Below are positions 2,081 to 56,736 of a stretch of 64,000 nt of DNA, one piece after another. Position 1 is the stretch's first letter; every line of letters begins with the position of its first letter. Source of the DNA: Octopus sinensis (Eukaryota); contig NC_043013.1 in the NCBI RefSeq assembly GCF_006345805.1, positions 52,204,001-52,268,000 of the forward strand. Reading direction: 5' to 3'. The translations under genes and the position numbers were made by a program. The notes under the pieces are model-generated. The model was not told the DNA's origin. It did no database searches and saw nothing but the letters and a program-made list of their open reading frames with translations.

Positions 2081-2256
2081 GTGAGTTGCTTTACTTTTTT
2101 TCCTTTCCTCTAATTGAGAATTTCAGGAGTTTAGTTCAGCCAGGAATTGGTAGATAATATATATGTATACATACACGTATATGTTAGTGTGGGTATGTGT
2201 CTATATATATATATACATGTCTGTAAAATAATATGTGACAATTATTCAGTAGCCAA

Positions 2257-2317
2257 GATAAAACTCTGAGTTTCGGTTGCTGAGGTGGAAATCCACACCA
2301 CCATCTCTTTGGTTATC
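2257..2317 (-). ncRNA. Degenerate hammerhead motif
   Basis: Reverse strand: gataa-CCAAAGA-gatg...caacc-GAAA-ctcagag-TT-ttatc. Stem I perfect and stem III palindromic, but the core is mutated. Confidence 0.45.
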
Positions 2318-2431
2318 TGGCCAGATAACTGGCTATTGAATAATTGTCACATATTATTTTACAGATAAATTCCTCTATTTACATAATACTGAGGTCTCTT
2401 TCATTCTTTTGTTATCTTACCGTTTTTACCA

Positions 2432-2462
<31 letters not shown>

Positions 2463-2612
2463 ATATATAGGTAAACAATTAAAAATGCTTCATAATCTCT
2501 ATGACAACCATAGCAATATATTTTAATGAATCTAGAATTAATTAGTTTGTTTCTCCAATTGTTAAAATTGTTGTCTGTTTGGAATGTTATTTTCTGTTTT
2601 ACTGTTTTACAG

Positions 2613-2701
2613 GAGAAAGAAGAAATTTAGTTTATTTGTTGCTGCTGACAGTAACGGCACGTCGAGAGGGGAACTTTTCTGGGACGATGGAGAAAGTTTC
2701 G
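2613..2701 (+). CDS. GAA: GAA-like coding exon
   Basis: AG at 2611-2612, GTAGGA at 2702. (S)RKKKFSLFVAADSNGTSRGELFWDDGESF contains the GELFWDDGES motif. Phase 2 in, 1 out. Confidence 0.95.
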
Positions 2702-2769
2702 GTAGGAGACTTATTTTGCATATATATATTGAGAGTTGAAATAAGATGGTCATTATTATTATTATTATT

Positions 2770-3283
2770 GAGTGAGAGAGCAGTTCATGCCATCAAAGTG
2801 ACACTAGGGTAAAATATACAAAGCCGATTATACCCATCATGACTACCCGATTGATAAGGGTACACCAGGCACATGCATCACAACCATATGTGCGCGACAT
2901 GGTGATCTCATATCAAGATAAACAGCACATGACCTTGCAGGTGGGGTCCAGTTAGAATTTTCTTCGGGTTGAGTAGCCCATCCCGCTCAAACGGTCCCTG
3001 AATAAGGGTTGTTTAAGGATGTTGAAAGAACCACCCATGTTTCCAGAGGTGAATTATTCAAACCCCAAAGAATCCCTCACAACACATGGCTATGATGCTC
3101 CCCCACTACTTCTGCTCGTGATCAGAGATGCACATATCGTCAGCCACTAAGGGACATGCTCAACTGGTTAAGGTCAAACGACTGACAAGCAAATCTATTG
3201 TATTGAGCAGAATATTTGCTGTAGCCCATCTTTTATACCAAGACAAAACAATGTACATGATAACACTTCCAATTAGTTAAGCC
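2770..3283 (-). mobile_element. (TAA)n-associated interspersed repeat, copy 1
   Basis: Near-identical to 29707-30170 and 34411-34961. Shared fixed end GAGTGAG abuts (TTA)n; the other end is variable. Confidence 0.85.
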
Positions 3284-3307
3284 CTTATTATCAGTGTTGT
3301 TGTTATT

Positions 3308-3338
<31 letters not shown>

Positions 3339-4025
3339 TTATTATTATTATTACTTTTAATCTGCATGAGTGTTACAATCATTTGCTGAGATACACCCTG
3401 CGTCCTAGGGTGAGTGAAGGAAAAGAGATGTTATAATATGACTGAAAGCTTGGGGAGGGGAAGTAGCAGGGCTTCATGTAATACAACATGTACATTTAAA
3501 TTGATATTATTATTATTATTATTATTTCTCCTTTAAGTGGTGCAACTTTGATGCATTTTGCAATTTTGTGCCAGGAGCCATCCTCATCATTGTTTAATGT
3601 TCTTTTTCCAAGCTGGTGTGGGTCAGATGATTTGACAGGACCCAGCAAGCCAGGGGACCGTGTCAAGCTCCGATTACTGCTCTGACCTGGTTCCTATGGC
3701 TTGATGCCCTCCAGAATGCCAACCGTTTTACAGAGTGTACTGGTTAATTTTTACATGGCACCGGCACTAGTGAGGTCATCAGGTAATTCACAAGACAAGG
3801 CCCCTCGACTGAGTGGGGTGTAGTATAAGGGAGGTGGCTTTGTGCCAGGCGATGAGAGGTTAAAGTGTGAATAGAGGGATAGAAACAAGTGACCCCTGTT
3901 CGATAAGGCGAGAAAATGGTGAAGATATGACAGGTGTGGTTGTATGGTAAGATGTTCACTTCCTAAACTCGTGGTTTTGGGTTCAGTTCCAGTTTTTGGC
4001 ATCTTAAGCATGTATCTTTCGCATA

Positions 4026-4445
4026 GGCGTAGGAGTGGCTGTGTGGTAAGTAGCTTGCTTACCAACCACATGGTTCTGGGTTCAGTCCCACTGCGTGGCA
4101 CCTTGGGCAAGTGTCTTCTACTATAGCCTTGGGCCGACCAAAGCCTTGTGAGTGGATTTGGTAGACAGAAACTGAAAGAAGCCTGTCGTATATATGTATA
4201 TATATATATATATGTATGTATATGTGTATATGTTTGTGTGTCTGTGTTTGTCCCCCCAACATCGCTTGACAACCGATGCTGGTGTGTTTACGTCCCTGTA
4301 ACTTAGCGGTTCGGCAAAAGAGACCGATAGAATAAGTACTAGGCTTGCAAAGAATAAGTCCTGGGGTCGATTTGCTCAACTAAAAGCAGTGCTCCAGCAT
4401 GGCCACAGTCAAATGACTGAAACAAGTAAAAGAGTAAAAGAGTAT
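4026..4445 (+). mobile_element. tRNA-derived CORE-type SINE family B (full length, intronic)
   Basis: tRNA-like head GGAGTGGCTGTGTGGTAAG...GGTTCAGTCCC, CORE-like ACCTTGGGCAAGTGTCTT, internal (TA)/(TG) tract, 3' (AGAGTAA)n tail. Confidence 0.85.
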
Positions 4446-4924
4446 AGCCTCATGCCAGCCAAAACCTGTAAGTGGATTTGGTTGATAGAAACTAAAAGAT
4501 GTGTGTGTATGTGCACGCGTGCACACGAGTGTCTGTTTGTCTCCTCGAGTGTCTGTTTGTTCCCCCCCCCCTTCAAACTGCTTGATAGCTGGTGTTGGTT
4601 TGTTTACATTCTTGTAACTTAGCAGTTTGGCAAATGGCATTGACAGAATAAATACCAGGTTTAATAAATAAGTGCAGGAGTTGATATGTTTGACTAAACC
4701 CGTTTAAGGTGGTACTCCAGCATGGTCACAGTCCAATGTCTGAAACAAATAAAAAAAATGAGGATCCTACAGAGGTGATGGTCACTGCACTCTTCCCCGT
4801 CTCGGTTAATTAATCGTAAATAAAGCAATATATTTATACTGTATATCTGTATCTTTTGCCATCATTACTTTTCCTGTTTTTTTTGCACTCTGACCAATCC
4901 TTCTTCCCCATCTCTCTCTTGCAG

Positions 4925-4974
4925 ATACAGTGAAGACTGGAAAATACACACATTTAGTGTTCACGGGAGCACAA
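4925..4974 (+). CDS. GAA: GAA-like 50-nt coding exon
   Basis: Long pyrimidine tract + CAG at 4922-4924, GTGAGT at 4975. (D)TVKTGKYTHLVFTGAQ. Phase 1 in, 0 out, which exactly bridges the neighbouring exons. Confidence 0.88.
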
Positions 4975-5235
4975 GTGAGTTTGAATTTCTTTTTTTTCTA
5001 TCTTGTCCTGTCCCTCCTCTAAACATACACACATATATATGTAGTGTGTGGGGCTAAAATCTACAAATTTCTTCTGTAGTATTGAAAGTAAACACTATTA
5101 ACAAACCTGCAATTTATTTAATCAAATTATCTGTTAAGCATGTGTTACATATGCAGATCAATCTAAGTTATTTTCACAAACCTCCAGTAATAATGGGTAT
5201 ATAAGTGGAGTTTTGTAGATAGTTAAAAAGGGTGC

Positions 5236-5283
5236 TCAACTGCTGATGAAATCTCAGTATGGGATTGAAACTAGTCCAGGTGA
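5236..5283 (+). ncRNA. Minimal type I hammerhead ribozyme motif
   Basis: tcaactg-CTGATGA-aatctc(agtat)gggatt-GAAA-ctag-TC-caggtga. Intact core, 6-bp stem II, palindromic CTAG stem III, GUC site, stem I 6/7 paired. Confidence 0.75.
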
Positions 5284-5637
5284 TTCCTCTTTCTCTGTCT
5301 ACAGAAAGATTGTATATAACGACAAAGTATTTACATGTGTCTATACCATAGAGTGTTGACTAAAACCTACAGATATACTCTGATGGGTCTGGTTCAGAAG
5401 AGGTGGTCAGTAGGGAAAGTAGAATGTCATTTAGACTCAGGTCTATGCTTCGTCAATGGAGGTTAGGTTGCCAGGATGAAGATGTAGGTTGTAAGACCCA
5501 AGTAGCGTGTGATGCCAGGAGACACAACATTGACGATGTGTACTAGTATTGCATCCATAGATGTATGATGAGCTACAAATACTTTGTGTGTTAGTGTATG
5601 CATGCATAAGTATATATATGTGTGTGTATAATATATG

Positions 5638-5673
<36 letters not shown>

Positions 5674-5714
5674 CTCTCTCTCTTTCGGAGAGGCACTGAG
5701 CAGCTATACGCACA

Positions 5715-5865
5715 CATACACACACGGCAGTAACTTCCGCCTACCGAATTCAATCACAAAGCTCCGGTCGGCTCGGGGCTATAGTGGAAGACACCTGCCC
5801 AATGTACCACGCAGTGGGACTGAACCCGAAACCATGTAGTTAGGAAGCAAGCTCCCTAACCACAT
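5715..5865 (-). mobile_element. SINE family B 5' part, reverse orientation (intronic)
   Basis: Reverse complement of family B head and core. Confidence 0.75.
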
Positions 5866-6121
5866 TTTGGAATGGTCATTTTACCAGTTTATATATATAT
5901 AAACTTACTTGGAAGAAGAATATATATATATATATTATTATATATCCATACTTAGTTATCATGTTAGTATAATCCCTAGCAGGGTTTCTGTACTGTATAG
6001 GAGATAATAGCTTTGGTCTCTTGGACACTTTTGTCAACTACTCGATAATTCTTTCAGTAATATTATAAAAGCAACTATTTCCTTGATATTCTTCTATCAT
6101 GAAAATTTCCCACCATCTCAT

Positions 6122-6178
<57 letters not shown>

Positions 6179-6464
6179 CACACACACACCATATGTATGT
6201 ATATATACATATGTGTGTGTGTGTGTATGTGTATATACATGTAGATATATATATATATACATACATGTGTGTGTATGTCTATTATATACGAAATATGTGG
6301 AGGCAGCACAGGTCTGGAGGGCATAATTGAAACATGCACCAAAACTTATATAAATATATATTTCGATAAAATAGAAATAAAATTACAAATACACAAATAT
6401 TAATGCTCCGTCCAACCCATGCTAGCATGGAAAACGGACGCTACGATGATGATGATGATGATGA

Positions 6465-6507
<43 letters not shown>

Positions 6508-6674
6508 ATATATATGAAATTGGTGATTCACTCTGTCATGTCTCAAAATTCCTCATTCACGCATGAGAACAACCAGATTCAGGTAAATAAATATACTTTA
6601 CAGCAAGTACTGAGTGCACTTCCCATTTGTTAAATCAAATACACACACATGTAGACATACATACATGTATGTAT

Positions 6675-6726
<52 letters not shown>

Positions 6727-6892
6727 CACATTTATGTATATGTATACAAACACACACACATACATACAGATATATATACACACACTCATACATACACACA
6801 TAGATACATACACAGATATGTACACACACACACATGCTCTGTTGTCTCCACCAGTTGTTTTACTGTGTCTCCTGAATGTTATTTACTTTCAG

Positions 6893-7045
6893 AACAATGT
6901 CACCAGTGAAGTGCTGGCGTCTGGTTACTCTCCACCTACTGAACTCTATCTTGGACATGTTTTGGTCTGTGGTGTTGCCAAGGGGCCACACCAAGTTCTT
7001 GCAAACTCTAAGCCAGCAAAATTCATGTGGTTTCCTAATTCACAG
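6893..7045 (+). CDS. GAA: GAA-like coding exon (153 nt)
   Basis: TTTCAG acceptor, CAG|GTAAGT donor at 7046. NNVTSEVLASGYSPPTELYLGHVLVCGVAKGPHQVLANSKPAKFMWFPNSQ resembles the distal beta-sheet domain (vertebrate VLGVATAPQQVLSN). Phase 0/0. Confidence 0.9.
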
Positions 7046-8315
7046 GTAAGTTGATTATAGCCTCCTCATCCCCTTCATCCTCATCATCATCATCACCATT
7101 AATGACCTGACAAGAGAAACCTCTCTGTCGTTGCTTGACTTTATAGAAATAGCAGCCAGATGTTCCTAAAATTGAAGGACATATCAGATAATGTAATCTT
7201 ACTTGTACTTTAAAGGATGGGATGGTCACATTTGGAATGCTTTTGGTGAAAGTATAAATAAAGGTCTGCTCAATAATAGCTGACCTAGAGTTAAAGAACA
7301 ACAACGTCATCATCATCACAGTAATTATTATCATCTCCTAATTTAATTACTTTGATTAGTTTCATATCTTTAATGAACTCATTAACCTCTTTATACGATT
7401 CTATCACCTTGCTGCCTCTTGACTCTTGAGAGGATGTGCTGTGGACGTTTTGGACAAAAGTCTTTTATTGACCAATGCCATGTGAGTGAAATTAGGACAG
7501 AGGGAAACTGTAATGAAGCCTGTCAGTTGGATTGTACACACAATTCAGAGGTGCAGCATTGTCACACACACTGTCAGATGCATTCGAGCTGAGCATTGCA
7601 TTAAGGGTACCCATGTCTGTGAAATACCCAGCCAGTTATATCTGGTTAGAAGATTAAGTTTTTTTGTTCTTAGAGCCTTAACTTAAAGTATAAATTTCTT
7701 AAGTAGGAAACTTCTCTATTTTTGGCTGAGGAAATTCCAGAGAGATGACATTCTGGGATGAATGACTAGGCGTTATGGTTAGTAGAGGTGAGAGGTGGTT
7801 TGGACATACTAAGGATGCCAAGAGGTGGCAGATAAAATTTGGCCTGCTTTTGGTAAAAGACTTGAGCAGTGAGTTCCAATAGAGTGAAAGGAGGAGGAGA
7901 TAGATATGGTTAGATCATTGGATCTCAACCATTCTTTTAATCTATGGACGCCATTGATTTCTATTCTGTTATGGTAAACCTCTAGAACCACTTGAAGTTT
8001 AAAAACTAATTTTATATTTAATTCTTTCTAAATTCCTATTTTGTAAATAAAATGGTTGTCATTAGGAAGGGTCTCCAGCTGTGAAAACCATGCCGAAACA
8101 TACCTCACTGGTGCAGGTGCCATGTAAAAAGCACTCAGTCCCCTCTATTAGAAAGAGCATCCAGCTGTAGAAACCTGCCAAAACAGACAGGAAGCCACCT
8201 GGTGTAGCTCCTGTCAAACCATCGAATTCATGGAAAATGGACGTAAACTGATGATGATGATAATTTGTGTAGTTTGAACTATGTAGAATGTTAGAGAAAA
8301 AAAATCTTGACACAA

Positions 8316-8685
8316 GAGTGGCTGTGTGGTAAGTAGCTTGCTTCCCAACCACCAGGTTCAGTTCCACTGCGTGGCACCTTGGGCAAGTGTCTTCTACTAT
8401 AGCCTCGGGCCGACCAATGCCTTGTGAGTGGATTTGGTAGACGAAAACTGAAAGAAGCCCGTCGTATATATGTATATATATATATGTGTATATGTTTGTG
8501 TGTCTGTTTTTGTTCCCCCAACATTGCTTGACAACTGATGCTAGTGTGTTTATGTCCCCGTAACTTAGTGGTTTGGCAAAAGAGACCGATAGAATAAGTC
8601 TTTGGGTCGATTTGCTCGACTAAAGGCGGTGCTCCAGCATGGCCACAATCAAATGAATGAAGCAAAGAAAAGAGTAAAAGAAAGA
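8316..8685 (+). mobile_element. SINE family B (intronic)
   Basis: Same as 4026-4445. Confidence 0.85.
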
Positions 8686-8971
8686 ATAATAGAATTTTAT
8701 GCAATAAATACATTTAGATCAAAATGCTTTCTTGGACCCTTAAAATACTTCTGTGGGTCTCCAGTTTGCTGTTTTGTTTTTTTGCGGACCCTTAGAAATC
8801 TTATATGGAGCCCAGTTGGGAACCACTTGATTAGATAGATAGAAACATAGTTGGAAAGATATAGACAGATACAGAGATGCATAGAGAGAAAGAGAGAGAG
8901 AACGTCGCTTGTATATTATTGCAAGAACTTTGTAAACTTCCAATATATTTTTATATTTTGTTTCCTTGCAG

Positions 8972-9034
8972 GTTTTAAACATCACCAACATGGCCCTCAG
9001 CCTCACTCATCCATTCACTATTACCTGGAGCTGA
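8972..9034 (+). CDS. GAA: GAA-like terminal coding exon with stop codon
   Basis: TTGCAG acceptor. VLNITNMALSLTHPFTITWS* resembles the GH31 C-terminus (F-x-I/V-x-W). TGA at 9032-9034. Confidence 0.88.
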   Translation, partial: VLNITNMALSLTHPFTITWS

Positions 9035-9095
9035 TTCCTACAACACAAAAATGTATTATAAGAAGAATGAACCGAAATTAAATCTAAAAAAAAAA

Positions 9096-9105
9096 AATAA
9101 ATAAA
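9096..9105 (+). terminator. Candidate polyadenylation signals (overlapping AATAAA) for GAA-like gene
   Basis: AATAAATAAA about 60 nt after the stop. It lies in an A-rich tract, so it may be chance. Confidence 0.35.
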
Positions 9106-9483
9106 GAGAACGAGAGAGAAGGATTCTTAAGTAGAGGAGGGTAAAAGAACGTAAAAAAAAAAAGTATTCGTTAAAGGGAAACAATCGAGAATTTTATTTC
9201 TAGTTTGGAAGTGATCTCCCTTTAAATGTCTTCGTATCTAGCTATTCGAGACCTATATATATATATATATGTATATATGTATACGTACACGTTTTTTTGT
9301 CTACTGGACGCTTTTACTTTTCTAATTTTTTGTTAGCCATTTTTTCTCCGGAAACGTCAATACAGAAACATGTTGGAAATTAAAATTTGATTTTGAAATA
9401 ATTTCATGATTTGGAAAGTATTAAAATTGAAAGGGTTTTAATGGAAAAAAAATGTTTTATACCACTATTATCACACACACACA

Positions 9484-9514
<31 letters not shown>

Positions 9515-10110: not shown

Positions 10111-10141
<31 letters not shown>

Positions 10142-10718
10142 ATACCTATAAGGCTGCAAGCTATTAGAATTGTTTGAGTATCAGGTAAAATGCCTTGCAG
10201 TGTTTGTTCTGGCCATTCCAATTCTGAGTTCTAATCCTGTCAAGGCCAGTTTTTCCTTTCATTATTTGAGGATCAATGAAATAAAGTACCAGTTAAGAAC
10301 TGGGGTTGACTGTATCAACTTAGGCTTCCCACTAAAATTGTTGCTCTTCTACTTAAATTGGAAACAATTTTCATTGTCATAAACCTAAAGTAAGATATTC
10401 ATATACTTAAACTTTATTTTGTTGTATCAAAGAATATGGAAAAATTTCCAAAAGGCATCCATCCACCACAAGCTAACTAACTTAACATTCATGAGTAGCA
10501 AACGTGCTTCTACAGAATTCTTACATTCTTTAATTCTATACACAAACTGACTTGGAGTAAAGATTTTTGCCAACATAATGTGGCAGTCCTGCTTTAGGAC
10601 GAATGTTGCTGTAATTTAGCCCCTGGAGACATTGTCTCCAGCTGGCTATATGACACGATCTGTGTCCTTATATTTTCGAAGAAGTGAATCTAGCACCCCA
10701 ACTCAGCTCAAAACACTA

Positions 10719-10763
10719 TCTGTGTATCACGATTTCTGGTTTATTTTCCTTCATCAGCACAGA
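10719..10763 (-). ncRNA. Minimal type I hammerhead ribozyme motif
   Basis: Reverse strand: tctgtg-CTGATGA-agg(aaaataaa)cca-GAAA-tcgtga-TA-cacaga. Perfect 6-bp stem I, near-palindromic stem III, weak 2-bp stem II. Confidence 0.6.
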
Positions 10764-11328
10764 ATAATTGTTCAGGTAGAGGTGGCGCTGCTAAATTCCC
10801 ATTAGAAATATATAGTTTTCAAAGTGACAACTAGTCACTGATCTATAAATTAGAAAATCACTATTTTTAAATCTCACAACAAGAGGTATTCAGCAACAGT
10901 ACTTTGGAGTAAACTGACTTATTGCTATTTCCCTACAACAGTTCAATGGTTATACTTAGAGGTGACATGTCTATACTTTTATACAAACATCAATGGTTAT
11001 CTATCTTTGTTAGTTAAGTTTGTAAGCTATGGACCAAACCTATTGCTAAGACAGTATTCTCATAAATTCTCGAATCTAGGTTCTCCATTGTTTTATAATA
11101 ATTGCTCAGCATTGGCTTGTTTATTACTCAGCTTCTACGTAGTCCTAGTAGGATAAAATGTAAGGCCATATATTACTAGTTAACCTATGAATTAGTACCT
11201 TGCCAACATGTGTCTGCATATTTCTCCTTCCTTTGCTTTGCTGCCTCTTAAGATAATACTGTGTGTGAGTGTGTCATTGTTTTTATGTATGTATGTTTGT
11301 GTGTATGTTTATGTATGTGTGTGTACGC

Positions 11329-11388
<60 letters not shown>

Positions 11389-27287: not shown

Positions 27288-27720
27288 ATAATAATTAATA
27301 TTAATATTCGGGAAGTTATTTCTGAGTCCACAGGGGAGAGAAGTTCAATTTAGTGGTACTAAAATGAATTACTGTATTATATACATATATATATATAGGT
27401 TTAAGAGACAGAATCACCTTCAAGCAACTCAATCATCATTGAATGACATGTTTTTTAAATGTTAATAAGAATTATCTCCCCTACAAAGTAGCTCTCAAAG
27501 TTGGATTATACAATTGCTTGTAGCCATGTTTAATTCATGGAGAGAAAATTACCATACAGATAAGTTAACATTTCCTTTTACTAATATTTCTTCTACTTTT
27601 ATTCCACATTTCTGTTCTTTATTTACTGAAGTAAAATTATTCCAACAACTTCTAGTTATATAATTTTAGTTTGTCATGTCTTAATATAGGATGTAAATAG
27701 CAAAATAAGTTCATAGAAGA

Positions 27721-27827
27721 TAGACCTGAAGATTGGCAATATAATCGTTTTAATATGGTATTGTATTTAGAGACATTCTATTTCAGCAATATCAAGTAAT
27801 ATGTTGCCATGAAACGCGCGTAGTCTA
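27721..27827 (+). ncRNA. Type I hammerhead ribozyme motif with long loop 2
   Basis: tagac-CTGAAGA-t-tggcaatat(58 nt)atgttgcca-t-GAAA-cgcgcg-TA-gtcta. Perfect stem I, 9-bp stem II, palindromic CGCGCG stem III, GUA site. Confidence 0.75.
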
Positions 27828-28016
27828 GATGATGTAAAGTATATTATTTGTAGTAAGAATTGAAGGTATTAATTTGATAATTTGGAATAAGAATTGTAGG
27901 TATTAATTTTGATAATTTTAATATTTAGTCCTATAAGTACCTATTGTGGATAATGTCATTCAATGATGATTGAGTTGCTTGAGGGTGATTCTGTCTCTTA
28001 AGCCTATCTATATCTA

Positions 28017-28478: not shown

Positions 28479-28842
28479 TCATATGTATGTGACATGTATG
28501 TATATGCTGTTGAAAATGTTTTTCCCTCTTGATTTTTTATTTTTTACTTATTTTATCCCCATTTTTTCCCTCTCATCCCTATTTGTCAAAGAGCATAGGC
28601 TCAGAACATCAAAGACTTCCCATTCTTCCTGAGCATCAAACTAGTACACCTGTTTGTTGTTCCCTCATCTGTCTTCGTCTATTGTTTTTCTGTAAATTTG
28701 GACTATATATATATATATATATATATATAAACCTTCATCATTCCAGGGTTGATTGACTAAGGAATCAGTAACATAGAAGATGGTGCAGTTGAACTGCAGC
28801 CTCTCTTCCCCATATCCGGAGTGTTGTGCCTATGTCAAATCA

Positions 28843-31968: not shown

Positions 31969-31969
31969 G

Positions 31970-34961: not shown

Positions 34962-35567
34962 ATATTATTATTATCATTATTATTATCATAAGGTTTGGCA
35001 GACTCATTAAGAGTACCAGATAAAAAGTACCGCAGTATCTATTTCAATGCTTTATATTTTGAATTTGAAACCTGCTGAGGTCAACTTTGCCTTTTATTTG
35101 TCATAACACCCCCATAACAACGGTCATTTCGACCCATCCTACTATTGCCCCTTATGGATTTCAACATGTGATGCATCAATTTTGCAGTCTGGGTCTCAGC
35201 AGGTACATCTATACATAAAGGTTTGTGTCTTGCTAAGAAACCCCAAGTTTTGGCTGTCATCTTGTTATATACCCTTCGGGGCCTATTTGTCTATTTATCT
35301 TGCTAGCTAGGTAGCTATACATGCATATAGATATAGGTGTATAGTATATGTAGTAGCTATGCATCCGTAACTATAGCTATCATTATCATCATTGTTTTAA
35401 TATAATTTTTTTCAATGCTTGCATTGTTCAATATACTTGTACGTGCATACATGTATACATACATACATGCATATAAAGTTAATCCAAACAAGAAAACACA
35501 AAAAAGCACAACAACGCGAGGTCGTGGAACAAATATAGTATTATTGGACGCTCAGGAAAGAAGGAGG

Positions 35568-35602
35568 GTTTAACGTTTCGAGCAGAGCTCTTCGTCGGAA
35601 AC
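35568..35602 (-). ncRNA. Atypical ultra-minimal hammerhead-like motif within a Penelope-type pLTR-like repeat
   Basis: Reverse strand: gttt-CCGACGA-A-gagc(tct)gctc-GAAA-CG-TT-aaac. Confidence 0.45.
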
Positions 35603-36131
35603 ATAGGAGAAGGAAAGATCCAGAGAAGGGAAGACAGAGGAAGAAAAATCGCCAACGGTACACACGAGGTCACATACATACATATGTGTGTGTGCGTGTC
35701 TGTCTGTCTGTCTTGCCTCTCTCTCTCTCTCTCCTTGTCTGTCTCTATACACACACACACACACTCACACACAGATACACACACATATACACAAACTTAT
35801 ATAAAACTGTTTATGCATATATATGTACAGTATATATATATATGTTTATAGATATATAGTCATAAATACACACAATCTATCATATATATACATAAATATG
35901 ACAATATTATTTGAAGCGTACAGCGTTATATACCCATTATGAGTGATCTTACGAATCAGTTTCGCACTTGGGATTCAGTGGAGTGTTAGGTAACAATCCG
36001 ATGATACAACCTTTCACTCATCAGGTCATTACCTAACACCCCATTTTAATCCCTAGCTTGAAACCAATTGGTAAGGTTAGTTGTAATAGATAGATAGGAC
36101 TATATATATATATACATAAATATACACATTG

Positions 36132-37037: not shown

Positions 37038-37597
37038 TACATATATATACTCCACATATACAAAAATTATCAATATGTTACTATACATATATATATATAG
37101 TACAAAGTAAGATAGGGGTTATGAAAGTAACCCACTATGGGATATCAGTTATCCAATATACTGCTGGTGAAGTACCCAAATACTAAATACATAAATGCTT
37201 ATAATTGCAATGCAATTAATTCATTTATTGTATTGAATGGGTGAAGGTAAAAAATATTTTACCGTAAATTCATAATACAAATAAGAAAATGGAGAAACAA
37301 ATTCATTTCGATCATGAATTTAGGGATATTACAAGTTTACATTATTTATTAATTATACAAATAGGAACATGAAAATCGAACAAAACAATATATATCAATA
37401 TGCAAATTGATAATAAAATAAAAATAATACAAATAAACTGCTCCTTACAGCTGTTTCAGCCTATGGTCAAGAGACAATCCAACTTAAATTGCCTATAGAT
37501 GCCATTGTAATATAGTCCCAGGAAGCCGGGCCCATGAGCTTGAAAATGGCGCATAAATAAATAAATAAATAAATAAATAACTATATATATATACATA

Positions 37598-39955
37598 AAA
37601 GGCAGACTGTATGATGCATGTGTACGTACAGCCATGCTACATGGTAGTGAAACATGGGCCGTGACTGCTGAGGATATGCGTAAGCTCGCAAGAAATGAAG
37701 CCAGTATGCTCCGATGGATGTGTAATGTCAGTGTTCATAATCGTCAGAGTGTAAGTACCTTGAGAAAAAAGTTGAACCTAAGAAGCGTCAGTTGTGGTGT
37801 GCAAGAGAGACGGCTGTGCTGGTATGGTCATGTGACGAGAATGGCTAAAGATAGCTGTGTGCAAAAGTGCTACACCCTAGCAGTTGAGGGAACCTGTGGA
37901 AGAGGTAGACCCAGGAAAACCTGGGACGAGGTGGTGAAGCACGACCTTCGAACTTTAGGTCTCACCAAGGAAATGACTAGAGACCGAGTCCTATGGAAGT
38001 GTGCTGTGCATGAGAGGACCCGGCAGGACTAGTCAGGCCATAACCCGTGGCCCCTACCTGGGACGTAGTCAGTCCACCTGTGCATACCTTCCTTCTTGTG
38101 ACACTTGTGAAGACCTGCTGAGGCAAGTGAAAATCAAAACAAATCAAAATAGATGAACATCAATGGAATTTGTATCTTTGTGGTACCAGTGCCGGTGGCA
38201 CACAGGAAAACCATCCGAACGTGGCTGTAGCCAGTACCGCATCGACTGGCCTCCGTGCTGTGGGCACATGGCAAACACCATCTGATCGTGGCCGTTCGCC
38301 AGCCTCATATGGCACCTGTGTTGGTGGCACATAAAAACACCATCCGAAGACCCGGCAAGACTAGTCAGGCCATAACCCGTGGCCCCTACCTGGGACGTAG
38401 TCAGTCCACCTGTGCATACCTTCCTTCTTGTGACACTTGTGAAGACCTGTTGAGGCAAGTGAAAATCAAAATCAAAATCAAAATCAAAACAAATCAAAAT
38501 AGATGAACATCAATGGAATTTGTATCTTTGTGGTACCAGTGCCGGTGGGACACAAGAAAACCATCCGAACGTGGCCGTAGCCAGTGCCGCATCGACTGGC
38601 CTCCGTGCTGTGGGCACGTAACAAACACCATCCGATCGTGGCCGTTCGCCAGCCTCATCTGGCACCTATGTCGGTGGCACATAAAAACACCATCCGAAGA
38701 CCCGGCAAGACTAGTCAGGCCATAACCTGTGGCCCCTACCTGGGACGTAGTCAGTCCACCTGTGCATACCTTCCTTCTTGTAATACTTGTGAAGACCTGT
38801 TGAGGCAAGTGAAAATCAAAACAAATCAAAATAGATGAACATCAATGGAATTTGTATCTTTGTGGTACCAGTGCCGGTGGCACACAAGAAAACCATCCGA
38901 ACGTGGCCGTAGCCAGTACCGCATCGACTGGCCTCCGTGCTGTGGGCACGTAACAAACACCATCCGATCGTGGCCGTTCGCCAGCCTCATCTGGCACCTA
39001 TGTCGGTGGCACATAAAAACACCATCCGAAGACCCGGCAAGACTAGTCAGGCCATAACCCATGGCCCCTACCTGGGACGTAGTCAGTCCACCTGTGCATA
39101 CCTTCCTTCTTGTGACACTTGTGAAGACCTGTTGAGGCAAGTGAAAATCAAAATCAAAACAAATCAAAATAGATGAACATCAATGGAATCTGTATCTTTG
39201 TGGTACCAGTGCCGGTGGCACACACTTTGTGGTACCAGTGCCGGTGGCACACATGAGAACCATCCGAATGTGGCCGTAGCCAGTTCCGCATCGACCGGCC
39301 TCCGTGCTGTGGGCACGTAACAAACACCATCCGATCGTGGCCGTTCGCCAGCCTCATCTGGCACCTATGTCGGTGGCACATAAAAACACCATCCGAAGAC
39401 CCGGCAAGACTAGTCAGGCCATAACCCATGGCCCCTACCTGGGACGTAGTCAGTCCACCTGTGCATACCTTCCTTCTTGTGACACTTGTGAAGACCTGTT
39501 GAGCAAGTGAAAATCAAAACAATCAAAATAGATGAACATCAATGGAATTTGTATCTTTGTGGTACCAGTGCCGGTGGCACACAAGAAAACCATCCGAACG
39601 TGGCCGTAGCCAGTACCGCATCGACTGGCCTCCGTGCTGTGGCACGTAACAAACACCATCCGATCGTGGCCGTTTGCCAGCCTCATCTGGCACCTGTGTC
39701 GGTGGCACATAAAAAACACCATCCGAGCGTGGCCGTTCGCCAGCCTCGTCTGGCACCTGTGTCAGTGGCACATAAAATCACCCACTACACTCTCGGAGTG
39801 GTTGGCGTTAGGAAGGGCATCCAGCTGTAGAAACACTGCCAGATCTGACTGGCCTGGTGCAGCCTTCAGGCTCCCCAGACCCCAGTTGAACCGTCCAACC
39901 CATGCTATCATGGAAAGCGGACGTTAAATGATGATGATGATGATGATGATGATGA
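37598..39955 (+). mobile_element. 5'-truncated RTE-clade LINE (ORF2 C-terminus, amplified 3' UTR, (GAT)n tail)
   Basis: KGRLYDACVRTAMLHGSETW...MLRWM...RRLCWYGHV...GRGRPRKTW..VV..DL is a typical RTE ORF2 end. 3' end CCAACCCATGC..CATGGAAAGCGGACGTTAAA(TGA)n. Confidence 0.9.
38017..39726 (+). repeat. Tandem array of five ~330-367 bp units inside the RTE 3' UTR
   Basis: Units start at GACCCGGCA(A/G)GACTAG at 38017, 38349, 38699, 39031 and 39398, and are nearly identical. Confidence 0.95.
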
Positions 39956-47614: not shown

Positions 47615-47658
<44 letters not shown>

Positions 47659-48160: not shown

Positions 48161-48271
48161 GTGTAAGGAATGCCAAACTGTGTGAGTATATTTTTATAGG
48201 TGGGGGTGACATGTAGTGGGGTGGAGTACTGTGGGGGTTTAGCGAAGGGTCAGATATTGCTCCATAACTAC

Positions 48272-48330
<59 letters not shown>

Positions 48331-48337
48331 ACGCACA

Positions 48338-49584: not shown

Positions 49585-49790
49585 TTTTATTACCCCCGCC
49601 TTAGCGAAAGCGGAGGTATTGTTTTCGGTCGTGTTTGTTTGTCCGTGGACAAGATATCACAAAAACCGCTGGATGAATTCGGATGAAACTTTCAGGGATG
49701 TTTGGCCTCGTGACTGGCACGAACTGATTAGATTTTGGCATCGATCTGGTACCGGACAAGGATTCTGGATTATTTTTCCTGTTTTGTTTG
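49585..49790 (+). mobile_element. Probable Helentron-associated (HINE/DINE-like) non-autonomous element fragment
   Basis: TTATTACCCCCGCC...GGAGGTATTGTTTTC, then GTTTGTTTGTCCG repeats, then GATATCACAAAAACCGCTGGATGAATTCGGATGAAACTT. Resembles the 5' layout of HINE-type elements from memory. Confidence 0.5.
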
Positions 49791-50429
49791 GCCTCATCTT
49801 CAATACTGTTCTCTCCTGGATCCTTCGAATGCCAAATAAATTATTATAACTCAAGTACCCTCAGAGTCCATTACGACAAAAATAGAGTACATGACACGTG
49901 GTACTTTTATAAGCGGTACTGTCGTCGACAACCCCTTTTATATTTACCAAAGGTTGGGAAATAAACTAGTGAACTCGTGAGACGGGTTTGATAATTGATC
50001 GAGGGACTTTCAGAATAGCATTCACTATCTCATGGAGAAGGGAAAGGACAATGAATCGGGTAGCTGTGACCTTCTGTGAAAGCATTTTTTGGTTCAAAAC
50101 ATTTGAATCTTTTACATTTTTACCCTCAAATTCTGTGTCGTTTTCGTGTAAATTTTTTCTGGTACTTCTCTCCATGCAGTAGTAATAGCTATTCCGAAAG
50201 TCCACTGGTCAACTATTACACTCACCCCACGAGTGTAATAGCTTATTCACTAATCATTTAGTTAGTTAAAAAATTGACTGTCGATAATTGTGAAGTTCCT
50301 GGCAAGTCTTAATTTACTGGGATCACCCCCCCCCCAACCCCCAAAAAAACTTTAATCTTCAATATCATCGGCAGCGCTTCATCATTTCGTGTGGGTAACA
50401 TTCCACCACCCATTACCCAAATGATATTA

Positions 50430-50935
50430 AGGCGGCGAGCTGGCAGAAACGTTAGCGCGCCGGGCGAAATGCTTAGCGGTATTTCGTCTGCCGCTACTTT
50501 CTGAGTTCAAATTCCGCCGAGGTCGACTTTGCCTTTCATCCTTTCGGGGTCGATAAATTAAGCACCAGTTACGCACTGGGGTCGATGTAATAGACTTAAT
50601 CCATTTGTCAGTCCTTGTTTGTCCCCTCTATGTTTAGCCCCTTGTGGATAATAAAGAAATATATATTTCGTCTGCCATTACGTTCTGAGTTCAAATTCCG
50701 CCGAGGTCAACTTTGCCTTTCATCCTTTCGGGGTCGATAAATTAAGTACCAGTTATGCACTGGGGTCGATATAATCGACTTAATCCGTTTGTCAGTCCTT
50801 GTTTGTCCTCTCTGTGTTCAGCCCCTTGTGGGTAGTAAAGAAATGAGTATTTCGCCTGTCTTCGCGTTCTGAGTTCAAATGCGACTGGCCCCCTCCCCCA
50901 AAATATTGGGCCTTGTGCCTAGAGTAGAAAAGATT
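50430..50935 (+). mobile_element. SINE family A trimer-like array
   Basis: Full copy followed by headless units restarting at TATTTCG(T/C)CTG; CpGs intact. Confidence 0.85.
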
Positions 50936-51286
50936 ACCAAATGATGGCTTGAAGTTTAAGAATCACATAAAGCCAGGTCCCTGTGCTATATATCCACCAC
51001 AAATAATGAATTCACATCATTTAAAGACCAACGCGGCTCAAATTCTTTGCCACAACTGATCCGACTTTACTTAACACTGTGGTCTTTTCCTTCTTTGCTT
51101 TGTTTTCTGATGGAAAACAATCCAAAGACGAAAAAGACTTCATAGTCTTCAGGTGGTACCTGATACCTGGATTCATTTTGGTCATCCACACTCCACTTAT
51201 TTGTGTGGGCCACTCTGTCTCAAAAGATAACAATATTCTGGATGGCCTGGGTCTAGACTGGTCGGAAACTAAATTATTGAGATCAA

Positions 51287-51323
<37 letters not shown>

Positions 51324-51546
51324 TGGACATACTCATATCTGTGCGTATGTGTGTGAGTGTGTGAGTATGTATGTATGTAGTATGTATGTATGTATGTATG
51401 TATGTATGTATGTATCTATCTATCTATCTATATATATATATATATATATATAAGTGTAAAGCTATAAATACTTATACAAGTTCATATATATATATATATT
51501 TATAGATACATACATACATACATACATACATACATACATACATACA

Positions 51547-51577
<31 letters not shown>

Positions 51578-51942
51578 GTATACACACACACACACACACA
51601 CACACAATATACATAGAGAGACAGACGAGCGAGTTTAGCTTCTGTGCAGGTCACGACTTTTACTGTCTCTCGCTGTTGACACAGGATAGATTAACAAACC
51701 AATTGTTACGTGATTGACAGTTTGTACATAACACCGGATCACCCACGCTGCGTGTGTGGTTCAGTCCAGGCTTCCGTAGTTTATTTGGTTTACTAAAAAT
51801 AATTTTTAATCGAATGAAATCATAATTATATTAACAATTCGAAATATTTCTAACACCCTAGTCGCATTTAGTCATACTTGTAATTATCCTTTTTGGTGAA
51901 ACATTGCATACTGCCATACATATTAATTTTATATATACATAT

Positions 51943-52363
51943 AGGTGCAGTAGTGGCTGTGTTGTAAGTAGCTTGCTTACGAACCACATGGTTCCGGGTT
52001 CAGTCCCACTGCGTGGTACCTTGGGCAAGTGTCGTCTACTATAGCCTATTAAGGCCGACCAAAGCCTTATGAATGGATTTGGTAGACAGAAACTGAAAAG
52101 AAGCCCGTTGTATATATGTATATGTATATATATATGTGTGTGTGTATGTGTTTGTGTGTCTGTGTTTGTCCCCCCAATATCGCTTGACAACCGATGCTGG
52201 TGTGTTTACATCCCCGTAACTTAGCGGTTCGGCAAAAGAGACCGATAGAATAAATACTAGGCTTACAAAGAATAAGTCCTGGGGTCGATTTGCTCGACTA
52301 AAGGTGGTGCTCTAGCATGGCCGCAGTCAAATGACTGAAACAAGTAAAAAATTTAAAAGAGTA
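51943..52363 (+). mobile_element. SINE family B
   Basis: Same as 4026-4445. Confidence 0.85.
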
Positions 52364-52726
52364 ATATAAGTGAATCGCTAAATCATCCAATTATTTGGAT
52401 GACGAAAACATAAATACTAATGGCGAGGCGAGTCCAGAAAGAGCCGAAGTTGAGCGGTCTTTACTGATGAGGCAACGGAAATGCCGAAACTAACGCGTCA
52501 GTATTACGAATTCTCGATCGATTCTTTTGGAACGATTATGATCCTTGTTAGTGTATATGTTTTCATTCACGTGTGTTAACTACAACATTAGAGCGGTTTA
52601 GCTCTTATTTCTTGCAGTGTAAGTATTTTCTTACACCTTAATCGCATTTAGTTGAAATTTATCGAAAAATAAAAGACGAACAACAAACAGATGTATTAGT
52701 TTGACACTCGGTAAAAATGAAAAAGT

Positions 52727-52762
52727 CTTTTACGTTTCGTGCCTACGCTCTTCGGCAGAAAG
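52727..52762 (-). ncRNA. Atypical ultra-minimal hammerhead-like motif
   Basis: Reverse strand: cttt-CTGCCGA-A-gagc(gtag)gcac-GAAA-CG-TA-aaag. Confidence 0.4.
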
Positions 52763-54067
52763 GAATAAGAGAAAATAAACAGAGAAAATGAAAAAAATCT
52801 TGTAGATTTCAGCGGTCCAGCATGGCGAATCTATCTATCTATCTATCAATACGATGGGCTTCTTTTAGTTTCTGTTTAGAAAATCCACCTACAAACACTT
52901 GGTCAACCGTGGGCTAGAGTAGAATACACTTGCCCAAGATTCCACGCAGTGGATTTGAACCCGGAACCATGTGGCTGGGAAGTAAATTTCTAACCACACA
53001 GCCATGCCAGAGTGCAATTTTAATTTACGCTAATTACCCCCCTTCTAATTCATTTCGGTGTCACAATCCACATGTTACCCTTTTGTTTTTATCGTTTATA
53101 GAAGGTAAACAGTAGCCCTAGGCCTTGTCAGACTCACCAGGCCTGGTGGAAAAGAGGGATTGAGGGACAGAGGAAGGTGGTATGCTCAAATTGGAGACCT
53201 AGCCTGATGTTTGCAACACGGTGAACTCCTCCTCTACAGGCACCCAGGTACCGGGTGGCCGGGTGGTTATATTAAATCGGGTGACGGAATAGGCTAAGTA
53301 CCCGTGTATGCCTCGGCAGGATTTGAACTCAGAACGTGAAGAGCTGATGCAAATACGGCAATGGACCCAGTCTGATGCTTTATCGATTTCACCAGTCCAT
53401 TCACCTCAGTAGACTGGTATTTTATTTTATCGGTCTTCGAAGAAAAGAAAAAGAAAAGGCAACGTCAGACCTTCCGTGATTCGAAACCAGATTTCAAAAT
53501 AAAAAAAAATAAAAAAATGCACAAAATCAGAATGCTTATCGCAAGGCATATTTTGTACAGTGCTCTAACCATTCTGCTAATTCGCTGCCTTGACGTTTTT
53601 TTTTCTTCAGAAGGTTCCTCAGGGAGATTTTCTTTCCTTGCCTTTAATATTAAATGATCTAATCAGAAAATTATTTTCACACGGGAACTATATTTCTTCC
53701 TAGTTGTTCTGTGGTTTTGGTAGCTCCTTACTGGCCATGCTTCGCTGATGAAGTTCAGAGATACAATCCACATGAAAGGCTTCAGTACAGTTTCTGCCAA
53801 TCCAAATTCACTGAAGCTATGAAAAAAAAAACCGTTTGCCCACAAATTCCTCGCATGGCCTAGTGGTTGAGGTGTTGTACCCATGATTGCAAGATTGTGG
53901 TTTCGACTCCCAGACTGGGAAGTGCATTATATTCTTGAGCAAAGCACTTCATTTCTCGTTGCTTCAGTTCACACAGTTCTAAATGAGTAAACCCTACGAA
54001 GGATTGGTGCTCCATTCAAGGGGCAATGTTGTGATCCCTGTCACTTACGCGCCATGAAAACTAGGTA

Positions 54068-54483
54068 GGCGGACGTAAAGAATGTGGACCGCACCCCCTT
54101 TGGTTTAATTTTTTCTTTTCTTTACTTTTTTTAAATTTTTTACAGACACCCTCCCCCATTTTCGAGTAGGGAGATTCTGATTCTGTAACAAAAAAAAAAA
54201 GGCATTTTAAAATTTTAATTTCACACCCACCAAATTCTTCAATTTTCACTTTAAAAAAAAAATTTTAATTTTACAGTTTTTTTTTCAGAATCATAATCTC
54301 CGTATTTTTCTACGTATTTCGCAAAAAAAAAAAAAATTCTGAAAAAATGAAAATTGAAGAGTTTTGTGGGGTGTGGTATTTTTTGTAGAATTAGAACCTC
54401 CGTACTAGAAAATGGGGGATTCTGTGAAGAAAAAAACCCCAAAAAACCAAAGGTGGTTGCGGTCCACATTCTTTTCGTACGCC
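54068..54483. mobile_element. Foldback MITE with 9-bp TSD (Mutator/Merlin-like), inserted in a SINE
   Basis: GGCGGACGTAAAGAATGTGGACCGCA... / ...TGCGGTCCACATTCTTTTCGTACGCC termini, internal inverted segments, TSD AACTAGGTA/AACCAGGTA. Confidence 0.8.
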
Positions 54484-55917
54484 AACCAGGTAACCAACCC
54501 TACGAATCCTAGGACTTGAGGCATTAATGACCAAGGGCTGTTGTCCCTCGTCGTGGGATCCTACCTGGACCTCACAGTCACGAAGCGAACTTCTAAACTA
54601 TTCGGCCACAACTAAATATCAGTTTAAATATCTAAAGTATTTACGAGTGACGGCGAGTGGCCTAGTGGTTAGCATTCACGATCGCGAGATAGTTTGTTCG
54701 ATACTCGGAGCAGGCGGTGCGTTGTGCTCTTGAGCAAAACACTACATCTGTTGCTCTGTGGTCACTTCGACATTTGATGTGTAGCAACCTGTACAGGTGT
54801 GAGCAGACGATGTCGATTTGAAGCAGGCAGCGAGGAGACGTACAGCATGCATTATGTACAACAATTGATCGCAAGAAACGATTTATCTGTGCAGTTTGTT
54901 AAGCAAGACATTGCAGGAAAGAGTCTTTCTCTGGCGTTAACGTTTACTAAATACTAAGTTCAAATGAAATGGAATAGTCATGGTTGGAATGCTTTGGTTA
55001 TAAAAAAGGCTTGACCAGATCTAATCTGGAAATAAGGAACAATAACTTCGACAACTTATTTCAGCTTCATCCAGTCTTCCAGCTCCAGTTTCTATGCTTA
55101 TCGTAGTTTCAAGCTACTCCAGGAAAATCATTTGAGGTTGTGAGCCGTACTCGCTGTCGGGCCCTTAGTGTAAGAATAAATAAACTACCCCCCCCCCCCC
55201 GCTTTCCCTCACCTTCATTCTTAACCTCTCACTCTTTCTTTTGCGCTGCTGCTATAACATACATAGTTCTTCTCCATCTTCTGTGACATCCATACTGACT
55301 TCACTCTATATTTATGTAATTAAGTAATATTTTTATAGTTTATTCAAGGAAGAAGGGGCCATGCCTGTAGCCTTTCGTAGGGACTCAATAACCGATAGGA
55401 AAAAGAGAATAAGTTGTACCTAGAACTGTAATTTCACCCGCCCATAATCCTTACAACAGGGTGCATTTCGCTAAAGGCACCCATAATCCAGTTAGGAGTG
55501 TTAAACCGACGAAGGATTAAAGTCCATCATCCCTAAACAGGGATATTTCTGCCCATGACTTTCCACACAGATTCCATCCATTTATCAAATTTCACCCAAA
55601 AGCCATTTGTCAACCCAATGTCACGACAGAAAAGAGAAACTCGTCCAAAGTACCAGACGTTGGGTTTTGAACCCTGCACCCCGTAGTTGCTAGGCAAGCG
55701 TGCTAACCACCCAAACATGCTTCTACCCAGTTATCAGTGACATGTCAGTGGTCAATCGATAGAAAACCTGTGTCTATTGTACCCGGATTATCGTGTTTCT
55801 TACCTATAATCACTGATTCACCTGATTATATCAGCAAATTTCTATTGACCAGTGTGGAGCTGTGGGTTGGTGGAGGGGTGGCTACTTGAAACCCACTGTA
55901 TTGTTGTTCTAAGGACA

Positions 55918-56152
55918 CCCACCACCGCCACCACTGGCATCATCACCACCGTCACCACCGCCGCCACAACAACCGCTTCTACCATCATCACAACTGCCGC
56001 CAACACCATCACCACCACCGCCGCCATCATCACCACCACCACCACTACCATCGTCACCACCGCCGTCGCTGCCACTTCAGTTTCCATCAATACAGCCACC
56101 GCCAACACAGCCACCACCACCACCACCACCACCACCACCACCACCACCACCA
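55918..56152. repeat. (ACC)n-rich trinucleotide repeat
   Basis: Degenerate ACC/ATC/GCC triplets. Confidence 0.9.
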
Positions 56153-56700
56153 GGCGACGCAACACATAACAACGCAATGTTTGCATTAATTAACTCTACT
56201 GATTATAACAAACTATTACTTTGAATGGTATTGCCATGGTGGTATTGAGTTCAAATCCCGCCGGGGATTGACTTTGCATTTCATCCTTCTTGGGATCGAT
56301 TAGGTAAAGTACCAGTCAAGTAACGGATCGATTAAATCGAATATACTCGTCCGCAATGATATAAGGCCTTGGAAAACACAAGGCCATTGTTGTTGGATAA
56401 CTACTGCTGCGTGGTCTGGCGGCTAGGATGAATATAGGCGCTGGCGCGGCTGTGTGGCAAGAAGCTTGCTTCCCAATCATATGGTTCTGGGTTCAGTTCC
56501 ACTGCGTGACATCTTAGGCAAGTATCTTCTACTATAACCTTGGGCCGACCAAAGCCTTGTGAATGGATCTGGTAGATATATATATATATATATTCCCCAA
56601 CTTCTTAGCTCTCCTGTGTGACCCTTCTGTCGGGCATTCGCCATGATAGATCGGTAGCCACTACACACATTTTTTTCTCTCCTTGTTTCTTTCTGTGTTC

Positions 56701-56736
56701 CTTTCTGTGGATGAGCGTAGGCTCGAAACGTTAAAG
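56701..56736 (+). ncRNA. Atypical ultra-minimal hammerhead-like motif
   Basis: cttt-CTGTGGA-T-gagc(gtag)gctc-GAAA-CG-TT-aaag. Same repeat family as 52727 and the decayed copy near 28580. Confidence 0.4.

Follow-up and report, generated by a model that had tools for sequence, protein, structure and literature searches.

Most minimal hammerhead ribozymes described in animal genomes, among them examples from limpet and oyster in the supplement of the same study, are solo motifs that probably derive from truncated Penelope-like elements (PLEs), with few inside full PLEs, and they cleave weakly and in a dimer-dependent manner (PMC4209133). Retrozymes of 350-390 bp coexist with PLEs in mussels and self-process to linear and circular monomers (PMC7229834); the retrozymes of vertebrates are PLE derivatives, and one of nine dimers was cleaved (bioRxiv 10.64898/2026.07.22.740005). 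Hydra-1_Obim of Octopus bimaculoides is a Hydra PLE with a hammerhead and a preference for (TA)n (PMC8557442), and in Poseidon, a PLE of Anolis carolinensis, two internal start sites of the reverse transcriptase (RT) define the PLE tail in vitro (PMC11167929). We compared with these systems a stretch of 64,000 nucleotides (nt) of contig NC_043013.1 (the window), in which an earlier note had read seven hammerhead motifs, said to sit in unrelated short non-autonomous elements, as a possible retrozyme system. Its source, a genome of 2.72 Gb with about 30 chromosome-sized contigs, we take to be an octopus; one PLE protein resembles a published Octopus bimaculoides element by eye only. The window very probably holds the debris of at least four PLE families that code for open reading frames (ORFs), together with two ORF-less tandem repeats, families D and G, that are likely retrozymes copied by PLEs.

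Published work already covers hammerheads of PLEs, one of them from an octopus, and retrozymes of molluscs, and the novelty suggested in the earlier note is lessened by solo PLE hammerheads (PMC4209133), mussel retrozymes (PMC7229834), retrozymes as derivatives of PLEs (bioRxiv 10.64898/2026.07.22.740005) and the hammerhead of an octopus Hydra PLE (PMC8557442 File S2). Our literature search found no description of a cephalopod retrozyme, though supplements of related papers may bear on the point, and a 2026 octopus repeat annotation reports 31 recently active PLE families, its available text making no mention of ribozymes (PMC13282606).

Hammerhead motifs in the window and across the genome

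All seven motifs are present, at 2257, 5236, 10719, 27721, 35568, 52727 and 56701, positions that mark stem I edges, and at the family level all seven, plus a further one at 52464, have type I topology with a core and stems I and II. The stem III palindromes were also correctly described (CTCAGAG, CTAG, TCGTGA and CGCGCG, plus CG three times). A strict scan of the window used a descriptor made up of the core, stems I and II, a palindromic stem III and UH, and a wider form of it also allowed a long stem II and core variants. Three palindromic matches were found against a mean of 0.05 (maximum 1) in 20 local dinucleotide shuffles, and the wider descriptor gave four matches against 0.04 (maximum 1) in 50 shuffles of the window. 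Several window copies bear mismatches, and because of these the motifs at 2257, 10719 and 52727 miss the strict scan; Rfam gave no match in the window at gathering thresholds, and when an E-value cut-off was used instead, the 150 matches listed out of 248 weak ones included no hammerhead family. The earlier reading overlooked a canonical-core motif at 52458-52509 on the forward strand and a decayed copy at about 28548-28703 (near 28585), also on the forward strand.

Searches of the same genome place every window motif in a multi-copy family (A to G; Table 1), and the elements are not unrelated as had been supposed: 56701 and 52727 belong to one family (copies of 56701 match 52727 at up to 83%), to which 35568 is related at about 75%. 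That most motifs adjoin (TA)n holds for three of the seven, which have (TA)4 no more than 15 nt away, against 161-512 nt for the other four; the window is rich in microsatellites (137 rows), and 12% of it is within 50 nt of a (TA)4 run. Residence in host introns applies to 2257 and probably to 5236, since these two motifs lie among exons of a glycosyl hydrolase 31 (GH31) gene.

The canonical CUGANGA core occurs in three of the seven motifs (5243+, 10757- and 27726+), and the other four have variant cores: CUGUGGA at 56705+ (A6U), CUGCCGA at 52758- (A6C, with a stem II mismatch), CCGACGA at 35598- (U4C), and CCAAAGA at 2312- (its family's U4C, with G5 altered as well and stem II broken). By family, the core is canonical in C, D, E and G, A6U or A6C in A, and U4C in B and F; U4C and A6C cores are weakly active in other hammerheads, their activity not being zero (PMC3088659). 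Seven of eight palindromes tested by predicted folding formed no hairpin alone and a self-duplex at -1.7 to -13.3 kcal/mol, while for the common family G palindrome both hairpin and self-duplex are possible; by this prediction the collapsed palindromic stem III would favour a dimer.

Across 600 kb of the genome, sampled as 60 stretches of 10 kb at even spacing, the strict descriptor found 20 motifs, about 1 per 30 kb, against 0 in each of five shuffles; the AATT palindrome of two of the 20, both in locus L286, is weak, and these two may be false matches. With a strict density of 1 per 16 kb (4 matches vs. 2.1 expected, P=0.17), the window is typical for the genome in hammerhead density, and the earlier figure of roughly one motif per 10 kb is of the right order. 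At about 1 motif per 30 kb, the default reading of octopus intron motifs is transposon debris. Extrapolation gives about 91,000 motifs per genome (55,000-140,000), compared with the 2,000-9,000 quoted, with another descriptor, in PMC4209133. The octopus motifs share with the metazoan PLE minimal hammerheads of that study type I topology, a collapsed palindromic stem III, an extra base after A9 in several families, a short stem I, many sequence families per genome and the predominance of solo motifs over those inside full PLEs; they differ in the family-fixed A6U and U4C cores, in stem II regions of up to about 80 nt and in palindromes of up to 14 nt. Two side observations belong to this survey: a repeated CTGCCGA...GAAATTT motif in L286, L067 and L071 passes the descriptor and is either an A6C family or a false positive, and loci L267-L326 hold at least 10 more hammerhead families absent from the window, several with stem II regions of 45-80 nt or palindromes of 10-12 nt.

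Truncated ends of coding Penelope-like elements

Five of the seven motifs (56701, 52727, 35568, 27721 and 2257) are 5'-truncated 3' ends of ORF-coding PLEs of families A, B, E and F, since long copies of these families run into coding sequence. The description as short non-autonomous elements therefore fails for these five and stands for families D, G and D2 (a sister of D). For each genome search the 30 best matches were fetched from hundreds to thousands of candidates (first-look candidates, which are not copy numbers: A 6214, B 1586, C 65, D 3058, E 455, F 2872 and G 860). Copies of most families have a common 3' end and ragged 5' ends, and (TA)4 follows the 3' end at 25/30 loci in A, 25/30 in B, 19/30 in E, 26/30 in F, 14/28 in G and 2/49 in D. 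The proposal of (TA)n-inserting retrozymes thus splits in two: (TA)n marks the A, B, E and F stumps, whereas D, the clearest retrozyme, avoids it. The hammerhead lies in an end repeat of an element with RT and GIY-YIG endonuclease in A (on both sides of the coding sequence) and in E, F and B (downstream of it), an arrangement seen in neither D nor G; none of A, B, E and F forms a short ORF-less tandem unit. These ORF-linked copies bear out the suggested connection to Penelope and to minimal hammerheads of the PLE type.

Same-strand GIY-YIG coding sequence lies upstream of the hammerhead at 5 of 30 family A loci, one of which (L003/L245) also has RT. An RT-endonuclease stretch related to A, used as the query, gave 113 scored matches with 85-100% protein identity and frames of up to 1009 codons, a young subfamily in which the frame exceeds 700 codons at 9 of 10 loci examined and the same A6U hammerhead stands downstream at 9 of 9. 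At L261, L262 and L264, identical A6U hammerheads flank the ORF on both sides, 4.3-4.5 kb apart, and since these near-intact copies have more than 100 close relatives, family A is young and possibly still active. Its ORF matches Pfam RVT_1 (E=1.3e-7) and, weakly, GIY-YIG, and the translations of L261 and L262 carry the Neptune traits DKG, a CX4CxxC linker and, C-terminally, a GIY-YIG domain with two cysteines and two histidines (Neptune and Hydra assignments are made here from motifs). Family A is therefore like Neptune-clade PLEs in its ORF motifs, in a hammerhead in both flanking repeats and in its (TA)n targets, and unlike them in the A6U core of 9 of 9 long-ORF loci examined (PMC8557442). 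Across A, B and their relatives, five of nine pairs gave a positive covariation signal, one that is partly circular because five of the nine rows were themselves matches to the descriptor.

The U4C core CCGACGA at 35568 is the state of family B as a whole. We had considered B a fixed-length element, no copy in the first sample reaching far upstream; a second search with its 5' part as the query ruled this out, as 5 of 30 loci extend more than 300 nt upstream into CA-rich sequence. At one B locus (L330/L417), a Neptune-type linker and endonuclease matching L261 (E=2e-11) lies 1.7 kb upstream.

Families E and F point to Hydra-type PLEs. Hydra-type GIY-YIG coding sequence stands upstream on the same strand at 2 of 30 family E loci (L159/L420 and L171), and the ORF link of F was found at 0 of 30 loci in a first sample and 2 of 30 in a second (RT-endonuclease directly upstream in L360/L418 and L361/L419), one locus having a 434-codon open RT-endonuclease frame that stops just before the hammerhead. 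The window F copy consists of an inverted arm, bearing an extra tail of about 65 nt, plus a sense arm, and this copy is likely dead. The Hydra traits (CxCX5C linker, CxxC and CxH, no CCHH) were read from L241-L243, L419 and L420, with DKT only in L241; the Pfam search did not recognise the Hydra-type ORFs.

The GIY-YIG fragment noted earlier in the window is present (Pfam PF01541, E=0.003, under the curated cut-off) and comes from another PLE family than the adjacent hammerhead. It was ruled out as the parent of the 56701 motif: a short TA run lies between them and the families differ, and relatives of the fragment have frames of up to 748 codons with a different hammerhead upstream of the ORF. 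This fragment and the parents of E and F resemble Hydra-clade PLEs in the CxCX5C linker, the CxxC/CxH residues, (TA)n targets and a hammerhead near the 3' end (PMC8557442); compared with Hydra-1_Obim, the hammerhead sequences of E and F differ, and the protein of the F parent is alike by eye only. Among the hammerheads of Hydra-type pseudo-long terminal repeats (pLTRs; L241:6291-7800, L242, L243, L244 and L315), the palindromes are CAATTG and CGATCG, a double change in which the palindrome is kept.

Tandem units without coding sequence

Non-autonomous ribozyme elements, whose existence had been proposed, are indeed found in this genome as families D and G and the sister of D. In family D, which has no ORF, the unit's own end recurs after 353 nt upstream of the 3' end. 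Two samples gave 60 loci, 11 of which were dropped as duplicates; in the remaining 49 the sequences bordering the array are not shared by any two, an inverted arm is present at 33, and L247 has up to three full units. The 3' ends fall at unit positions 4-14 in 25 of the 49 and at 62-70 in 13 (38 together), two clusters about 55 nt apart that lie about 174 and 229 nt beyond the predicted cut at 189 and of which neither coincides with that cut; 27 of 34 inverted arms end at positions 57-74. Folded as a circle, four copies gave z-scores of -4.2 to -5.9 against shuffles, a long stem bearing the hammerhead at its tip. Both D (353 nt, GC 38-40%) and G (355 nt, GC 37%) are head-to-tail units in the range of about 170-400 nt and below 45% GC, and consecutive units with hammerheads occur in D (at least two sense hammerheads at 7 of the 49 loci), in the D2 dimer at L419 and in a G dimer at L239. 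The longest ATG frames have 31 (D), 38 (D2) and 62 (G) codons, and no contiguous PLE ORF was present in the fetched D and G loci, which are best matches. In L134 a PLE ORF is found 100-300 nt downstream of D, on the far side of a (TA)n run, and it was set aside as a separate insertion.

The sister family D2 has a unit of 353 nt as well, is identical to D at 225 of 330 positions (68%; score 238 vs. 99 ± 11 shuffled), and folds with z -5.3. At L419:3557-4710 it forms a dimer with an inverted arm, the units being 99% identical and the hammerhead rewritten, and, unlike D, it is inserted in (TA)n; further copies lie in L019/L422, L032 and L318. A comparison of D with D2, made on 7 copies of D, 3 of D2 and 1 other, showed both sides changed in 10 of the 13 base pairs of the ribozyme, with a covariation score of 0.666 against 0.316 for shuffled and at most 0.245 for slid alignments; the rows represent two or three lineages, not eleven independent events.

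Family G (28 loci, two near-duplicates dropped) exceeds one unit at 14 loci and has an inverted arm at 8. Its 3' ends form two clusters about 45 nt apart that hold 22 of the 28, and two locus pairs share 29-43 nt upstream, probably unit sequence. Family C is old, its copies having 69-82% identity to the window copy: among 29 loci, the sense copy is followed by another after 247 or 293 nt at two, a clear inverted copy is present at two and a PLE ORF at none, and five pass the intact-motif pattern. It may be a fossil retrozyme.

Families D, D2 and G resemble the animal non-LTR (long terminal repeat) retrozymes (PMC7229834; bioRxiv 10.64898/2026.07.22.740005) in their head-to-tail units of 353-355 nt with GC below 45%, in one type I hammerhead per unit, in the lack of an ORF and in being mostly dispersed monomers; D and D2 also share strong self-pairing, and coexistence with autonomous PLEs is common to both systems. 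The octopus copies, known here from genomic sequence, show a PLE tail and inverted arms, of which no description was seen in the available text on retrozymes, and D and G differ from Xenopus retrozymes in that no homologous pLTR was found among the ORF-bearing and random loci fetched, against 24 of 57 Xenopus families that match Repbase.

Four sequencing runs (library type unrecorded) were examined over 10140-11270, and contigs cover the D unit in all four, no pile-ups of starts or ends being listed. The D head-to-tail joint occurs in runs guessed to be RNA and also in a large DNA-like run, and is therefore uninformative on circles. In two runs guessed to be RNA, contigs span both unique flanks of the window D copy and reach into D; in one run with a second organism label, the left flank of this copy is covered with an 8-nt deletion, and the insertion may be shared. 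At L250:4628-5906 (L126), eight D sub-units of about 165 bp without a hammerhead stand beside a full unit, as if a satellite were forming from a retrozyme fragment.

Beyond the repeats of Table 1, the window has at 61587-61703 an almost perfect hairpin, some 117 nt long, which microRNA models match weakly and which is probably a small inverted-repeat element, and at 38017-39726 five tandem copies of a GC-rich 332-bp unit directly after a fragment of coding sequence (37577-38032) that resembles a long interspersed nuclear element; the hammerhead scans found none in these 332-bp units.

Table 1. Hammerhead-bearing repeats and other features of the window (UTR, untranslated region).
Feature	Positions	Strand	Hammerhead and predicted cleavage site	Remarks
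Family D, one 352-nt unit plus 8-10 nt redundancy	10554..10913	-	10763-10719; canonical core 10757; site after 10725	Flanked by 10-nt direct repeat AAGTCAGTTT; retrozyme-like
Family G, 5'-truncated copy of a 355-nt non-coding tandem unit	52365..52645	+	52458-52509; canonical core 52464; site after 52503	14-nt stem III palindrome (one change); retrozyme-like
Family A 3' stump	56595..56828	+	56701-56736; core CUGUGGA (A6U); site after 56732	Between (TA)n runs
Family A stump, second subfamily	52646..52830	-	52762-52727; core CUGCCGA (A6C), stem II mismatch	Adjoins 3' end of the G copy
Decayed family A copy	28548..28703	+	Core not intact any more	
Family B 3' stump, Neptune-type PLE	35476..35670	-	35602-35568; site after 35572	Long CA-rich 3' UTR
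Family E 3' UTR stump, AT-rich Hydra-type PLE	27401..28001	+	27721-27827; canonical core 27726; site after 27822	78-nt stem II region; palindrome ACGCGCGT; inverted 5' arm of about 50 nt
Family F palindromic stump, Hydra-type PLE 3' end	2217..2430	-	2318-2256; core 2312 CCAAAGA (family CCGAAGA); site after 2262	Between (TA)n runs, in GH31 intron
Family C, old repeat	5178..5382	+	5240-5279; core 5243; site after 5276	7-bp stem II; palindrome ACTAGT
GIY-YIG endonuclease fragment, other AT-rich Hydra-type PLE family	56921..57352	+		Truncated at both ends
GH31 (alpha-glucosidase-like) gene exons	228-309, 1899-2066, 4928-4975 (also L421)	+		Pfam E=2.3e-10; 1.9e-20 just upstream
Doublecortin-domain exon	61920-62405			Pfam DCX E=3.5e-16

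Mechanism, alternatives and meaning

We reasoned that one mechanism could underlie both the stumps and the tandem units. The RT-endonuclease of a PLE would nick AT-rich DNA, reverse transcription would begin within the RNA, at either of two sites that lie downstream of the hammerhead, and would usually end early and so leave stumps of 200-600 bp, often with an inverted second arm. A lone stump motif would be nearly inactive unless two copies pair via the palindrome, as in tandem transcripts, because the stem III of a single motif is too short to fold alone. Paired hammerheads would cut the transcripts of D and G, made from head-to-tail copies, into RNAs of unit length; these might be circularised and would be copied back by way of the same internal start. 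In having two 3' ends separated by a tail and lying downstream of the hammerhead, D, G and F are like Poseidon; Poseidon differs in being autonomous, with a tail of 30-40 bp in the start of its ORF, whereas the tail of D has about 55 nt and lies in a non-coding unit (PMC11167929). From these marks we infer that D, D2 and G use PLE machinery. On the identity of a helper, L019/L422 (L422:5359-6967) offers a lead, not proof: bounded by (TA)n runs, two truncated arms meet head-to-head there, one of Neptune-type family A and one of D2, with no further A sequence within 9.9 kb. Of about 120 head-to-head joints (overlapping loci counted), no more than two cross from one family to another, this one and B/E in L158. 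The chimera may stem from a single insertion whose priming took place on two different RNAs.

Several observations pull away from debris of coding PLEs plus PLE-copied retrozymes. The ORF link is one locus for B and two each for E and F, and the window A copy has 91% identity to L003 and 72-78% to the young ORF-intact subfamily, from which its parent appears to be an older subfamily with broken frames. Among the fetched ORF-bearing and random loci there was no ORF-bearing PLE with sequence like D or G; within G, covariation scored 0.090 against 0.089 for shuffled alignments, and one G unit folded no better than shuffles (z -1.1). With the one PLE that has been reconstituted, mutation of the hammerhead left insertion normal, and the RNA-seq data had no reads starting at the cut (PMC11167929); for autonomous families, then, cleavage may be of no consequence.

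The alternative that survives best, which we regard as possible but distinctly the less probable, is that D and G are internally deleted PLEs or local DNA duplications of a pLTR, which spread from linear tandem transcripts and require neither cleavage nor circles. D and G do bear every PLE insertion mark, the hammerhead is dispensable for insertion in vitro (PMC11167929), L126/L250 shows 165-bp sub-arrays that lack it, and, because the head-to-tail joint is present in genomic DNA, tandem transcripts would suffice. This account has difficulty with D and D2, which differ at a third of positions and yet keep the unit length, the core and three stems through compensatory changes, which argues for selection on the fold in a non-coding lineage; in addition, no parent pLTR was found among the fetched loci. 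We hold it evenly balanced whether D, D2 and a third variant form a long-lived octopus lineage of 353-nt retrozymes with rewritten stems, a kept fold, PLE-style insertions and no coding parent left.

The earlier assignment of all seven motifs to retrozyme families that are short, non-autonomous and inserted at (TA)n would suit the many copies that are short and ORF-less, the (TA)4 runs at which A, B, E and F end, and D and G themselves, but it is improbable given that long A, B, E and F copies enter PLE coding sequence, that 5' ends are ragged and that D avoids (TA)n, and it is contradicted already for five of the seven. Still less credible is the domestication of one or more copies as host regulators, with 5243 in the GH31 gene as the candidate: its core and stems are intact where only 5 of 29 family C loci pass the intact-motif pattern, and it lies on the sense strand among the exons, but about 10^5 motifs per genome would be expected to leave some intact old copies, the query itself was picked as intact, and a solo minimal hammerhead did not cleave in vitro (PMC4209133). 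Chance matches or microsatellite artefacts, which the lack of an Rfam match and the mismatched stems or variant cores of several window copies might suggest, can be dismissed on the excess over shuffles (4 vs. 0.04 in the window, 20 vs. 0 in 600 kb), the multi-copy families and the covariation between sister families.

We therefore return to debris of coding PLEs together with retrozymes that PLEs would copy. Hammerhead-bearing PLE stumps, known across animals, are mostly ordinary, and what is worth following is the set of D, D2 and G and the variant cores. The mobiliser of animal retrozymes is still inferred in the literature, and D, D2 and G offer insertion-level evidence for PLE machinery, being at the same time ready substrates for the in vitro PLE assay already available; whether a PLE hammerhead has to cut at all could likewise be tested in the families whose variant cores are fixed and whose ORFs are almost intact. 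If the reading of a long-lived lineage of 353-nt retrozymes is true, it would provide direct genomic evidence that Penelope enzymes copy animal retrozymes by internal initiation, with a testable helper named; this genome, in which recently active families have fixed A6U and U4C cores and motifs number roughly 10^5, would be among the most hammerhead-dense known.

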